Positions 10,697 through 20,099 are shown, numbered from the stretch's first letter. The stretch: DNA of 41,985 nucleotides from Acidimicrobiales bacterium (GCA_027366675.1 DAHXND010000034.1:1-41985); one strand, 5' to 3'. Numbers and translations are program-made. Notes: a model not told the origin generated them from the letters alone.

Positions 10697-13258
10697 CTAT
10701 CTCGACAGGCCAGCCAGGCGGAAGACAGGTCCCTTCATTGCCTCAGCGACGAAGAGGTAGGCCACTCCCGCTCCCATTCCCAGGCCTAGGGCAGAGAGCC
10801 CGATAGGCGTCATGAGCCACCCTCGCCAGGCCAATACACTGACTACGATAAGATCTCCGAGAGAGCTGGCACCGAGCCAGGTGCTTGGTAGCGATGACCA
10901 GAAGTGCCTTCTTTCTCGCACGGCATAGATGGTGGCCTGGGCAGATGAGACTAGCCATATGAAGGTCAGGGTCTGGAGCGCTCCAGTGTGCAGCCCGAGC
11001 CCATAGTCTCCTGCCAGCCAGATCCCGAAGGACATAACTATTAGAGGCAGGGCAAGCCCCACGGAGGCCAGTATCAGCGAGCGCACGCTCCAGCGCTCGG
11101 GCTCGCGCGGCGTGCCTACGCGGTCTGTTGCGAGCGACATCGTGGCGAAGTTATTGGCGAGAAGCAGCAGTACCACGAGCAGAGGCGTGGTGACGAACTT
11201 GCCGAAGACGATCAGGCCGATGCTCAGGAAGAACGATACCTGCAACGTCTTCACGATCTTGTTCAGTGTATAGGTGAGCATGCGCTCATGGATGCGCCGG
11301 CTCACCTCCACGCCATGCACCAGGTTGTCCAGCCCGAGCGTCGTGAGCACGAGGCTGGCTGCAGCCTTTGCGACATCGGTGGCACTGGCGACGGCTACTC
11401 CTACCTCTGCCTTCGATAGCGCAGGGGCATCGTTGACGCCATCGCCCGTCATCCCGACGACCAGCCCCCGACGCTGGAGGCGGTCGACGAGCCGGAGCTT
11501 GTCCTCAGGTAGCACCTCGGCATATACGTCGCAGGCACCGGCAGCCTCGCTGGCGGCTGTAACAGCGGGGCTGCCAGCTGTAACAGCGGGGCTGGCGGCT
11601 GTAACAGCGGGGCTGGCGGCTGTAGTTCCTCCGTGACTGGCCGCGCGCTGAGACTCGATGGCTCGAGGGTTCCCGGTAGCACTGCTCGAAGCGGCGCCGT
11701 CCCCGGCAGTGCTCGAGCCCTCGCTATCGCGCAGGACCGCGGCAGAGCAGGCCCTGCTTCCTATCCCTACCTTCCCGGCTATGGCACGTCCGGTGGCGAT
11801 TGAGTCACCTGTCACCATGATGACCCTGATCCCCAGGTCATGCAGGTCCTTCACGAGCTTCGCCGAATCTGGCCGGGGAGGGTCTGCCATCGCGATCAGG
11901 CCCAGGAAGGTGGGCGTTCCCTGCGGCTCGCCCTCGGCCACCCCGAGCACACGCGATCCACTCGAGGCGAGTCTGGTCACCTCGTCCCTAACCTGGTCGG
12001 GCGGGATAGAGCAGAGCTCGGCTACCACCTGGGGCGCCCCTTTTATCACGCGGACTTGGCCAGAGGTAGTCTCGACGATTGCCTCACAACGTTTCGTATC
12101 GGGAGAGAATGGCGTCACCTTTATTGCGTGACCCAGGGGGGTCAGGCCTTTGTCGCGTGCCGCGCCAAGCACTGCGAGGTCGAGGGGGTCCTGGGTAGCT
12201 TCGTCGCTGGCGGCCGCTGCCACCTGCAGTACCAGATCCGCCGTCGCCTTCGAGATCGGTACGGTCTCGTCCACGGCGAGTGTGTTCTGAGTGATCGTCC
12301 CCGTTTTGTCAGTGCAGAGGACCTCCATGCTGGCTGCTTCCTCGATGGCTGCCAGGTGCGTCACCAGGACTCCCTCGCCTGCGAGCTCTCTGGCGCCGAG
12401 AGCGCTTGCCAGAGTGAAGGTGGTCGGGAGCGCTATGGGGACGGCTGCTACCACCAGGATCACGATGAAAGGCAGGAGTTGCTCCCAGCCCAGGTGGCGC
12501 AGGAACCCGTCGCCGAGGGCCACGACCGCGAGGCCCACGTCCAAGATGAGTAGGGCCTTCACGAAGCCCATGATGAGTTGCTCCAGCCGGCCTGGGGCAT
12601 GCGTGGTCGCGACGAGCTCTGCGGTGCGACCGTAGTACGTGCCGGATCCCGTGCCTGTGACCTCCCCAGTCGCCTCGCCCCGTACGACGAGGGACCCCGA
12701 ATAGGCCGTGGCGCCCTGCCTGGAGGTGACGGCCAGGGATTCGCCTGTCAGGGCAGACTGGTCCAGGGACACCTCCCCGCCCTGAAGCTGCAGGTCGGCT
12801 GGCACGAGGTCTCCCTGTCTGATGTGCACGAGGTCGCCCTTCACGATCTCGGCTGCTTCGATCTCCCTCCACGAGCCGTCGCGTTTCACCCTGGCCCGGA
12901 TGGAAAGGCGTTGCTTCAGCAGCTCCAAGGCCTCTGCCGCCCCACCTTCCTCCCGGAAGGCAAGGGTGGCGTCGAGAGCGACAAGGATCGCAATGACTAT
13001 GGCCTGGGCGTAGTTGCCTAGCGCGAGCTCGAGAACTATCGCAGCTTCCAGCAGCCAGGGCACCGGCCCCCAGAGCTTCGCCAGGAAGGCAAGGAGATGA
13101 TTCTGTTTCGGATCAGGGATGGCATTCGGGCCGTCGCGCTCGAGCCTGCGGCGAGCTTCGGTGCTGGTCAGTCCTGGCGGATCGTCAGGAGGGGGGCTCG
13201 GCTGGTCCCCATGCGCTGGCTGGCCTTCCTGGTGCCAGGCGAGCTCTTCAGTGCCCAA
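10697..13258 (-). CDS. P-type ATPase, P3A (plasma-membrane H+-ATPase-like)
   Basis: DQSALTGES, VPIALP, phosphorylation site DKTGT, KGAP, DPPRPD, MVTGD, MTGDGVNDAPAL; LWGPVPWLLEAA typical of P3A. Confidence 0.9.
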   Translation of the reverse strand: MGTEELAWHQEGQPAHGDQPSPPPDDPPGLTSTEARRRLERDGPNAIPDPKQNHLLAFLAKLWGPVPWLLEAAIVLELALGNYAQAIVIAILVALDATLAFREEGGAAEALELLKQRLSIRARVKRDGSWREIEAAEIVKGDLVHIRQGDLVPADLQLQGGEVSLDQSALTGESLAVTSRQGATAYSGSLVVRGEATGEVTGTGSGTYYGRTAELVATTHAPGRLEQLIMGFVKALLILDVGLAVVALGDGFLRHLGWEQLLPFIVILVVAAVPIALPTTFTLASALGARELAGEGVLVTHLAAIEEAASMEVLCTDKTGTITQNTLAVDETVPISKATADLVLQVAAAASDEATQDPLDLAVLGAARDKGLTPLGHAIKVTPFSPDTKRCEAIVETTSGQVRVIKGAPQVVAELCSIPPDQVRDEVTRLASSGSRVLGVAEGEPQGTPTFLGLIAMADPPRPDSAKLVKDLHDLGIRVIMVTGDSIATGRAIAGKVGIGSRACSAAVLRDSEGSSTAGDGAASSSATGNPRAIESQRAASHGGTTAASPAVTAASPAVTAGSPAVTAASEAAGACDVYAEVLPEDKLRLVDRLQRRGLVVGMTGDGVNDAPALSKAEVGVAVASATDVAKAAASLVLTTLGLDNLVHGVEVSRRIHERMLTYTLNKIVKTLQVSFFLSIGLIVFGKFVTTPLLVVLLLLANNFATMSLATDRVGTPREPERWSVRSLILASVGLALPLIVMSFGIWLAGDYGLGLHTGALQTLTFIWLVSSAQATIYAVRERRHFWSSLPSTWLGASSLGDLIVVSVLAWRGWLMTPIGLSALGLGMGAGVAYLFVAEAMKGPVFRLAGLSR
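11549..11624 (-). repeat. In-frame 21-bp repeat x3.5 (SPAVTAA) inserted in the ATPase P domain
   Basis: GCTGGCGGCTGTAACAGCGGG units at 11549, 11570, 11591, partial at 11612. Confidence 0.9.
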
Positions 13259-14504
13259 CGCTGACTCCGCCCCCTCCGAGCAGCCGAGCAGCCTGGCGAG
13301 CCATGATCAGATCTTCACGTGCGTGGACGACGGCCGCGGCTGGCATCCTGCGCGGGGCTTCTGCGGCCGGGGCTGGAGCGTCGAGCGATATGATGCGGTC
13401 CCCCGAGGCATGCTCGTTCTTCCCGGCGTCGAGCTCGAAGCCTAGGAACGATAGATGCTGGCAAACCTCACGCCGAAGCGCGGCGGAGCCTTCTCCTGCG
13501 CCAGCCGTGAAGGTCAGGACGTCCACGCCGCCCATGGCTGACACCATCGCAGCTATGGCTGCACACAGGCGGTGGAGGTACAGCTCCCAGGCCAGAATGC
13601 AGCGCTCGTCTCCGGCAGCAGCGCCATCTATCACCTTGGCCAGATCAGCGTGACCGCTGAGGCCGAGCAGCCCCGACTCGTGCTCCAGGGCCTCCTCGAC
13701 GGCTGAAGCTTCCATGCCTTCTCTCTGGATCAGGTGAAGTATCACACCCGGATCCAGCGAGCCCGATCGTGTTGCCATGACCAGTCCTTCGAGCGGGGTG
13801 AATCCCATGGTCGTATCCACGGCGCTCGCTCCTACGACAGCGGCGAGCGAAGCACCGGAGCCCAGATGCGCGCTCACGATGCGCAGTCCATACGGGTCGG
13901 CACCGAGAAGCTCGGCAGTCCTCTGCGACGCCCACTGGTGCGAGAGACCATGGAATCCGTAGCGCCTGATGCCGAGAGCTCGCGTCCAGTGTTCAGGCAC
14001 TGCGTATGCTCTCGCGGCAGGGGGCATGGTAGCGAAGAATGCTGTGTCGAAGCAGCCGACTGAGGGAATGTCAGGTGCCAGCGAACGTACCTTGTCTATC
14101 AGGGCAAGAGCTGCGGGGTTATGAAGGGGGGCTAGATCAGCGAGGTCCGCGAGCTTGGATTCTTCCAAGGGATCAAGGAGAATAGGCTTCGTGAAGAGCG
14201 TTCCTCCGTGAACGATCCTGTGAGCGCTGGCTTCAGGCGAGTAAGAGGCGACCATCTCTGATAGAGCATCGCTGAGTGAGGGTGTGCCGGGTGGCGGCAG
14301 ATTCCTGACCAAGACGTCCCTGTAGGCCGTGTCCCTGTAGGCCGTGTCCCTGTAGGGCTGATCCCTGCCTGGCTCATCCCCGGGAACGGAAGCCTGGGTA
14401 GGCGAGATGCCACTCGGTTCCCCAGGCTCTGCCGACGCCTCACCTACGTCCACGATAGAGCACTTCGTAGAGCTGCTCCCGGCGTTCACCGTGAGAACCC
14501 TCAC
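13248..14504 (-). CDS. ackA: Acetate/propionate kinase
   Basis: [53 protein letters not shown]-terminal insert with a 15-bp repeat (YRDTA, 14316-14356). Confidence 0.93.
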
Positions 14505-19671: not shown

Positions 19672-20099
19672 GATTCAGCGGTAGTAGAGATCCCGAACGA
19701 GCGGCCTGTCACGTCATGAAGCGGGATGCGTAGCCAGTGCTCGTGCGCTCCAGGAACCCACGGATGCAGTGGAAGAGCACGTGCCGCCTGTGATAGCTCG
19801 TCGAGCGAGGAAGTCACGTCGAAGCAGGGTCCCTGCAGCACGACGCTCCATCCCCAGCGACCCGAAGCCTCGGCATCGTCTATCTCGAAAGCTACAGATG
19901 ACAGCGGTGCTTGATCGAGCTTCTTCCCTGGAGCGGTACGCACCACTACCGCGCCATGATCGTAGATGTAGTTCACGGGGAATATCATCGGCTTCCCGTC
20001 TATGGTAACGGCGAGCCGCCCGAGCGAGTTGTGCTCGATCAGGTCTATGCACTCTTCTCGGGTGAGCGGCCTGAGACCGCCCGCCTCTGCTCGCGTCAT
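19668..20099 (-). CDS. Pyridoxamine 5'-phosphate oxidase-like (split-barrel flavin-binding) protein
   Basis: LTREECIDLI, GRLAV, PVNY, VAFEID, GWSVV, PW, VTGR. Confidence 0.88.
   Translation of the reverse strand: MTRAEAGGLRPLTREECIDLIEHNSLGRLAVTIDGKPMIFPVNYIYDHGAVVVRTAPGKKLDQAPLSSVAFEIDDAEASGRWGWSVVLQGPCFDVTSSLDELSQAARALPLHPWVPGAHEHWLRIPLHDVTGRSFGISTTAES

Follow-up and report, generated by a model that had tools for sequence, protein, structure and literature searches.

The window analysed here is a 41,985-nucleotide stretch of an Acidimicrobiales genome, contig C103 of assembly G000 (2.48 Mb, 85% complete). One sequencing run, labelled mine drainage metagenome, contains this DNA and may be its source; no RNA run carrying it was found. 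Reading its open reading frames (ORFs) and overlaps, we found five minus-strand genes between positions 10697 and 20099, each overlapping its neighbour. They encode, in order of transcription, a pyridoxamine-5'-phosphate-oxidase-like (PNPOx-like) protein, a predicted disaccharide phosphorylase of family GH65 (GH65a), a phosphoketolase (gene xfp), an acetate kinase (AckA, gene ackA) and a P-type ATPase of the P3A clade, referred to below as the pump. Divergent from them lies an ORF that fuses a HAD/beta-phosphoglucomutase (beta-PGM) domain to a second GH65 domain (GH65b), and a DosR-type box separates the two units (Table 1). Within this cluster, the pump carries the Asp and Asn of the P3A proton site in exchanged positions, a state fixed throughout a clade of related pumps.

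Table 1 Coordinates of the features discussed in the text.
Feature	Position	Strand	Remarks
PNPOx-like protein (Pyridox_ox_2)	19668..20099	-	143 aa; PF12900 E 3e-24
GH65a, predicted disaccharide phosphorylase	17137..19671	-	844 aa; Pfam GH65 N/m/C
Phosphoketolase (XFP)	14501..17140	-	879 aa; variant-clade member
Acetate kinase (AckA)	13248..14504	-	418 aa; TIGR00016 317.1 bits vs cut-off 293.4
P3A-clade P-type ATPase (pump)	10697..13258	-	853 aa; TIGR01647 649.7 vs cut-off 615.5
Divergent HAD/beta-PGM-GH65b fusion ORF	20224..23871	+	TIGR02009 160.4 vs cut-off 153.35
Pump Asp96, M2 (codon GAC)	12971..12973	-	AHA2 Asn106 / Neurospora Pma1 Asn154 position
Pump Asn703, M6 (codon AAC)	11150..11152	-	AHA2 Asp684 / Pma1 Asp730 position
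Pump M5 Lys667 (aligned to Neurospora Pma1 Arg695) and Lys670	11249..11260	-	from alignment
Phosphoketolase Leu342-Thr343 (Bifidobacterium Gln321-Val322)	16112..16117	-	22/22 of clade; Gln-Val in 98/98 others
Phosphoketolase Ala321 (Bifidobacterium Lys300)	16178..16180	-	Ala 22/22; Lys 98/98
Phosphoketolase Asp616, beside phosphate-binding Lys (Lys605 equivalent)	15293..15295	-	Asp 22/22; Gly 98/98
ATP-inhibition motif PWX2HX3YRX7HXRX31R, complete	14810..14965	-	residues 726-777; regex match
Tandem repeat encoding Lys/Pro/Gly/Ala C-terminal tail of phosphoketolase	14532..14661	-	unseen in 21 other clade representatives
DosR/DevR-type palindromic box	20170..20187	.	minus strand TAGGGACCAATGGCCCTA; between divergent units
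Second DosR-type box	1393..1410	.	score 23.7; precedes molybdopterin oxidoreductase alpha subunit
Third DosR-type box	5583..5600	.	12/12 consensus positions; precedes phosphoribosyltransferase-hydrolase gene
Possible -10 hexamer TAGAGT	20136..20141	-	7 nt ahead of an ATG; leaderless start inferred
10-codon ORF	20096..20128	-	stop overlaps first gene's ATG (ATGA)

Gene order, overlaps and box can be read directly from the DNA. An initial annotation had described the five overlapping genes, and all were present on re-reading; of the junctions it listed, ATGA at 17137-40, GTGA at 14501-04 and the 11-bp overlap TTGGGCACTGA at 13248-58 stand, while 19668-71 reads GTGA and not ATGA. The box, placed by that annotation at 20169 beside the cluster, occupies 20170-20187. 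Family profile scans agree with the assigned enzyme identities (GH65, phosphoketolase, acetate kinase, P3A ATPase and the divergent beta-PGM/GH65 protein), and AckA aligned over its full length with 2iir (E 9.6e-77). The GTG at 19671 and the TTG at 13258 are the earliest in-frame starts past an in-frame stop and the sole starts upstream of conserved N-termini, and the region of homology opens at residue 7 in GH65a, at residue 28 in the pump and at residue 1 in AckA; because the stop and start context and the N-terminal homology fit, we regard the start codons of these three genes as well founded. For the fusion ORF, the ATG at 20311 or 20338 is the likelier start. In the genome, xfp, ackA and the pump gene were found as single copies.

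Aligned with AHA2 (5ksd, chain index plus 11; E 1.6e-113) and Neurospora Pma1, the pump retains a complete catalytic set (phosphorylation, TGES, nucleotide and hinge motifs) and ten predicted membrane helices, and a fold search with its structure model (pLDDT 86.9) returned Pma1/AHA2 structures as the top six matches. Its proton site, in contrast, departs from the canonical one at both positions: Asn703 stands in place of the M6 Asp acceptor and Asp96 in place of its M2 Asn partner, both within membrane helices of the model. The position of plant Arg655 is taken by Gln673, and M5 has its basic residue instead at Lys667, aligned with Pma1 Arg695. By these features the protein appears to be a P3A ATPase by descent and not a canonical P3A H+-ATPase.

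We then asked how widely the exchange occurs. Among the best 120 of 7656 homologues, 32 carried Asp(M2)/Asn(M6) and 88 carried Asn/Asp, with no Asp/Asp or Asn/Asn combination. Fifty-one extra sequences drawn from 12 of the swap clusters gave the same picture, 43 having Asp/Asn and the eight that show one site only always having the swapped state. The closest homologues are labelled Acidimicrobiales or Actinomycetota, which makes an actinobacterial host probable, and at least 15 of 401 genomes of the same order have a pump match at 1e-75, the swap being read in four (G000, G002, G049 and G084). Across 150 representatives at 50% identity, M6 Asp was present in 131 of the 137 with the column filled (a few being truncated and poorly aligned), and M2 Asp occurred in only two fragments, both of the swap clade. 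In a quick tree built without bootstrap from 17 of the 32 swap pumps, 31 of the 88 near canonical pumps and 16 of the 150 representatives, the 17 swap pumps grouped together as a single branch with SH-aLRT 100, inside the canonical bacterial pumps, a placement that holds with both residues masked. The swap thus arose once and has been retained down to 62% identity.

Since the two M6 states lie one base apart (GAC to AAC), Asn703 could in principle be a sequencing error or the sign of a decaying, dead pump. The same two residues, however, are found in 32 clusters down to that 62% identity, with TGES, DKTGT, KGAP, MVTGD, PEDK and GDGVND intact in all 32 and DPPR in 31. Asp96 is encoded by both GAC and GAT among swap pumps, and dN/dS is low (dN 0.09-0.36, dS 1.1 to saturated; ten pairs from five loci, with L009 left out). 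Error or decay is therefore extremely improbable, and we rejected it. The residue states and their fixation in the clade are direct observations.

In AHA2, Asp684 is indispensable, mutants other than Glu hydrolysing ATP without pumping; Asn106 pairs with it and is called conserved in all PIII H+-ATPases, and N106D is tolerated, with pumping at a reduced rate (PMC5387105). Because loss of Asp684 alone stops pumping in AHA2, the doubly exchanged site is likely a compensated, mirrored proton site. As in AHA2, a hydrogen-bonded Asp-Asn pair would capture the proton, but with donor and acceptor mirrored and the acid on M2, and Lys667/Lys670 of M5 could act as a built-in counter-charge. The general statement of the initial annotation that P3A ATPases export H+ is not simply transferable, because Asn here occupies the position that AHA2 proton transport cannot do without; continued H+ export is nevertheless the outcome we consider fairly probable. 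Conservation of the M2 Asn in all members fails for prokaryotic homologues, because distant groups carry Gln or Ser there. These are P3A groups that kept the M6 Asp, with M2 Asn replaced by Gln in P0243 and P0262 and by Ser in P0257, P0258, P0303 and five more. Our literature search found no natural Asp/Asn swap in P3A pumps, subscription journals and supplements lying mostly outside its reach.

We next considered the enzyme proposed to feed ATP synthesis. The phosphoketolase has XFP_N, XFP and XFP_C domains and scores 1326.6 against NF003619 (cut-off 962). Among its best 120 homologues, it belongs to a variant group of 22 members (70-82% identity) with fixed changes at near-invariant positions: R56T, T63S, T64A, G94C, P96H, G177S, K321A, Q342L, V343T and G616D occur in 22/22, and the canonical state in 95-98 of the 98 others. 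In Bifidobacterium numbering, transferred through alignment with 3ahc (presumed to carry a 20-residue tag), the changed positions include Gln321, Lys300, Gly181 and Gly604, and the enzyme has Leu342 for Gln321, Ala321 for Lys300 and SDG...D for the GDG...N cofactor motif. We take Lys300, the GDG...N motif, Thr67 and Asn215 to be functional in phosphoketolases. A DNA-pattern scan of 401 genomes for the variant loop was too degenerate, giving about as many matches as its reversed control. A Lys-rich tail was considered as a family trait and rejected (Table 1).

Other features of the enzyme are conventional. Equivalents of His64, His97, His142, His320, Arg442, Glu479, Tyr501, Gln546, His548, Asn549, His553 and Lys605 are kept in 22/22; all of these but Gln546 stand in a list of catalytic residues drawn from PMC10547157, in which Lys605 holds the substrate phosphate. 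The eight-residue ATP-inhibition motif of phosphoketolases (PMC10365998) is complete here, as in 15 of the 22 variant-clade members and 80 of the 98 others, and its completeness fits an enzyme that switches on as ATP falls. The fixed changes nevertheless raise the possibility that the variant has an altered substrate range (short or unphosphorylated ketoses, for example), and that the proposed carbon route is not the one used. Besides the changes themselves, this is suggested by Asp616, which adjoins the Lys holding the substrate phosphate, and by the Bifidobacterium Q321A mutant, which gained 5-fold in efficiency on dihydroxyacetone (PMC10547157). Because that mutant is active, Gln321 is a conserved feature and not proven essential. 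Yet the active-site equivalents listed above are retained, and the gene is the sole xfp copy found in the genome and lies next to ackA; on balance, we regard a substrate shift as rather unlikely.

The regulatory setting of the cluster is suggested by its box, which agrees with the stringent DosR consensus GGGACTTNNGNCCCT (PMC6448022) at 10 of its 12 specified positions. A scoring matrix derived from six boxes that a DosR consensus had picked out elsewhere in the assembly, off this contig, gave it 21.6, a score that 1 of 200 simulated windows reached. By the same matrix the window holds three sites (23.7, 21.6 and 18.7), whereas the 200 simulated windows together gave three sites at or above 18.7. 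The genome encodes a DevR homologue at C2:3987-4742 (3c3w at E 4.5e-70, the next family reaching 2.7e-40) with a box immediately upstream of its own gene, and the sole HisKA_3 kinase found in the genome adjoins it. Usp, Hsp20 and phosphoribosyltransferase-type (PRTase-type) genes are typical members of DosR regulons. By Pfam scan, the window encodes two Usp proteins, an Hsp20, a PRTase-hydrolase, the PNPOx-like protein and a molybdopterin reductase. The DosR-type box together with the DosR homologue in the genome leads us to read the cluster as a probable low-oxygen operon, with a DosR-type regulon as its likely setting.

Further features accompany the boxes. Strong boxes of the same type elsewhere in G000 (C181:1064, C181:1104, C166:307, C228:822, C85:2452, C127:1721, C200:20883 and C179:28241) may sketch a wider regulon. 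The molybdopterin oxidoreductase alpha subunit behind the strongest box of the window (2-1612, minus strand, box 1393-1410) is cut by the contig end, has the DMSO reductase type II family as its best match, below cut-off, and is likely an anaerobic respiratory enzyme. Ahead of the operon, the 10-codon ORF at 20096-20128 is possibly a leaderless coupling peptide, or else a chance occurrence; a scan for sigma-70 promoters and terminators gave no signal above shuffled sequences and did not pick up the TAGAGT at 20136-20141.

For the sugar end of the pathway, the best Protein Data Bank (PDB) match of GH65a is maltose phosphorylase 1h54 (E 1.9e-87), and the beta-PGM-GH65b protein matches beta-PGM 8h5s (E 5.4e-54) and 3wiq (E 7.9e-91). 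Both GH65 domains match phosphorylases better than hydrolases, their best matches being spread alike over maltose, kojibiose and trehalose-6-phosphate enzymes. The Glu of GPDEY and the phosphate-site Lys and Ser are present in both genes; we take these residues to be the general acid and phosphate ligands of GH65 enzymes, and the His before SSLS to belong to the same site. GH65a retains the GPDEY acid, the KQAD Lys and SSLS, with Arg replacing the maltose phosphorylase His (TVRDSSLS against TVHESSLS). That His is kept in GH65b, whereas Arg-Asp occurs in GH65a and at locus L231 (TVRDSSLS), and L238 reads TVHDSSLS. Since otsA is present in the genome and M. tuberculosis needs beta-PGM (Rv3400) to use trehalose (PMC13689574), trehalose is our best guess for the disaccharide of the operon.

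Besides otsA, the genome holds pgi, tal, zwf, pfk and ATP synthase c elsewhere; pta was not found in this 85% complete assembly. The module had been called self-contained, a description that does not hold, as glucose 6-phosphate must go through pgi on contig C88, and tal and zwf lie on C172. We also observed a PiT phosphate transporter with a PhoU-like partner (8214-9988) and a CYTH-CHAD protein (27818-29641) flanking the phosphate-consuming operon.

Combining these elements, we propose that the five genes form one DosR-type low-oxygen operon and that the swapped-site pump, its acid now on M2, probably continues to export protons, a reading we favour by a modest degree. Regulation, substrates and transport enter this scheme as inferences from sequence. 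As oxygen falls, a DosR homologue would bind the box at 20170, and phosphorolysis of a glucose disaccharide by the GH65 enzymes would follow. Beta-PGM together with housekeeping pgi and tal could provide the phosphoketolase with hexose and pentose phosphates, and a drop in ATP would free this enzyme from its ATP inhibition. AckA would then convert acetyl-phosphate to ATP and acetate, and the pump would consume the ATP, holding cytoplasmic pH. The pathway of the initial annotation is thus plausible and supported in part: the emergency role it assigned when respiration stops is in keeping with the low-oxygen context (box and DosR homologue) and the ATP-inhibition motif of xfp, whereas its pump step, H+ export, cannot be taken over on family membership alone.

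A number of observations weigh against this reading. For the pump, the single origin of the swap makes the 32/88 split one event and not 32 independent co-changes. The swap clade also fixes further membrane changes (A279T in M4, Q658E and G773A), and its bacterial parent group lacks the plant Arg655, carries a pair of lysines in M5 and in many cases has gained Asp240 in M3, so the cargo of the pump may differ. Transport function is not established for prokaryotic P3A members (PMC10654040). The pump could be an active ATPase whose mirrored site exports another small cation or an anion that pairs with the two M5 lysines, or else exports H+ but with changed coupling. Such a cargo would suit the absence of the M6 Asp needed for AHA2 H+ transport and the fixation, in 32/32, of additional acids (Glu77, Asp240 and Asp802) alongside the pair of M5 lysines, but the compensating Asp lies exactly where AHA2 hydrogen-bonds Asp684, keeping the net chemistry of the pair, M4 has gained no metal-binding acids (AAVPIALP), and the closest structures are proton pumps. 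We consider this alternative unlikely. For the enzymes and the control of the operon, the phosphoketolase lacks both Gln321 and Lys300, so that its substrate may not be the canonical one, and related swap-pump loci examined with the box matrix had no strong box near their pumps.

Conservation of the arrangement itself was not supported. The initial annotation had proposed a neighbourhood search for GH65-xfp-ackA-P3A; the full four-gene order was found in 0/157 pump loci (L008-L164, many short or distant), with xfp within the flank in four. Among swap-pump genomes, the xfp-ackA pair of G049 is canonical and lies about 14 kb from the pump. In G084 the variant xfp sits on a different contig from the pump and has no neighbouring ackA, in G002 a canonical xfp is likewise found on a different contig, and the L010 locus retains only an xfp remnant. 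Strict coupling of the variant phosphoketolase to the swap pump was considered and, with the two uncoupled in G002, G049 and G084, rejected. These data, together with relatives that carry the same genes in differing orders (L231-L236), would suit an operon that is a local shuffle of DosR-regulon genes sharing a promoter, having general dormancy roles and no dedicated disaccharide-to-pump pathway. In those relatives, beta-PGM lies directly before GH65a (L231, L232) and GH65b before Usp (L233-L236), with the order GH65b-Usp-ackA in L233. Indirect evidence points the other way: 7 of the 21 other variant-xfp clusters have a longest contig identical in length to that of a swap-pump cluster, and two more have one matching that of a canonical pump (members looked up for 8/21 xfp and 12/31 pump clusters). 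Two of the seven contigs are below 10 kb, while one swap pump has a contig identical in size to that of a canonical xfp. Within loci of the same order, xfp adjoins ackA in 24 of 29. A local shuffle is a possibility we hold tentatively, behind the dedicated operon, and it is compatible with the mirrored-site reading of the pump. A loose association of xfp and pump is likely, and the exact operon looks like a local arrangement.

Several local details complete the description of these loci. A frameshifted, variant-type phosphoketolase remnant lies at L010:12131-12377, about 3 kb from the swap pump, and a 417-aa ORF without Pfam match (L228:15156-16406) directly follows the G084 variant phosphoketolase at the place expected for ackA. 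An inversion of the beta-PGM/box/PNPOx block as the source of both fusion and operon is speculative; the orientation of PNPOx differs between L235 and L236. In the window, short tandem repeats give added in-frame stretches of low complexity in three successive genes (xfp, ackA and pump), among them RDTAY repeats within AckA (14316-14356) and a repeat coding a low-confidence pump loop (11549-11624, residues 521-563). Between the converging usp and pump genes, 10546-10696 holds a 14-bp tandem array and a duplicated 30-bp block. Farther away, a lower-GC stretch (0.57-0.62) encodes a 1417-aa subtilase-family protein (32372-36625, plus strand).

The operon itself is of modest novelty, a plausible DosR-controlled fermentation unit; what stands out is the mirrored proton site. 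Whether P3A pumps hold the proton as hydronium in the M4 cavity by the M6 Asp or in a direct Asp-Asn hydrogen bond is unsettled (PMC10654040, a 2023 review), and a natural, selected exchange of both residues separates these models. Should the swapped enzyme pump, the Asp-Asn pair model would be favoured; should it not, another cargo or role for bacterial P3A proteins would be indicated. In its broadest form, our proposal is that a clade of actinobacterial P3A pumps shifted the essential Asp from M6 to M2 yet pumps, that the minimal proton site of P-type pumps is the hydrogen-bonded Asp-Asn pair rather than a carboxylate on M6 that faces the M4 cavity, and that this pump works within a DosR-controlled module whose remodelled phosphoketolase sustains acid-dwelling cells without oxygen; we see the chances for and against it as evenly balanced. 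The variant phosphoketolase, altered at Gln321, a position mutated by engineers for wider substrate range, is a candidate for carbon-saving pathways.

Finally, we compared each part of the system with its known counterparts. Like the mycobacterial DosR/DevR regulon, this genome combines a DevR homologue, a box fitting the consensus and Usp/Hsp20/PRTase-type neighbours; the literature searched yielded neither a DosR regulon containing phosphoketolase and acetate kinase nor a DosR-controlled operon of this kind. The known trehalose route through a GH65 phosphorylase and beta-PGM (the latter represented by Rv3400 of M. tuberculosis) has its parallel in a beta-PGM domain and two GH65 domains, although here beta-PGM is fused to GH65b, and GH65a has Arg for the phosphate-site His. 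The phosphoketolase finds its best PDB match among known enzymes of this type, SeXPK of Synechococcus elongatus (8IO8; PMC10365998) and Bifidobacterium XFP (3AHC); it has the eight ATP-site residues and the catalytic His/Glu/Tyr set, and differs from them by Gln321Leu, Lys300Ala, Gly181Ser, Gly604Asp, a GHCGH loop and the Lys-rich tail, with Asn215Asp in 7/22 members of the variant clade. With AHA2 (5KSD), Pma1 (7NXF, 7VH5, 9UGB) and TIGR01647, the pump has in common the fold, the ten predicted helices, the catalytic motifs and a basic residue at the Pma1 Arg695 position, but it has Asn at Asp684/Asp730, Asp at Asn106/Asn154, Gln at Arg655 and no C-terminal regulatory domain. The direct parent group of the swap clade is formed by the short bacterial P3A pumps with the M5 signature NKIxKT (88 homologues), which keep Asn(M2)/Asp(M6) in 88/88, whereas the swap clade does not.

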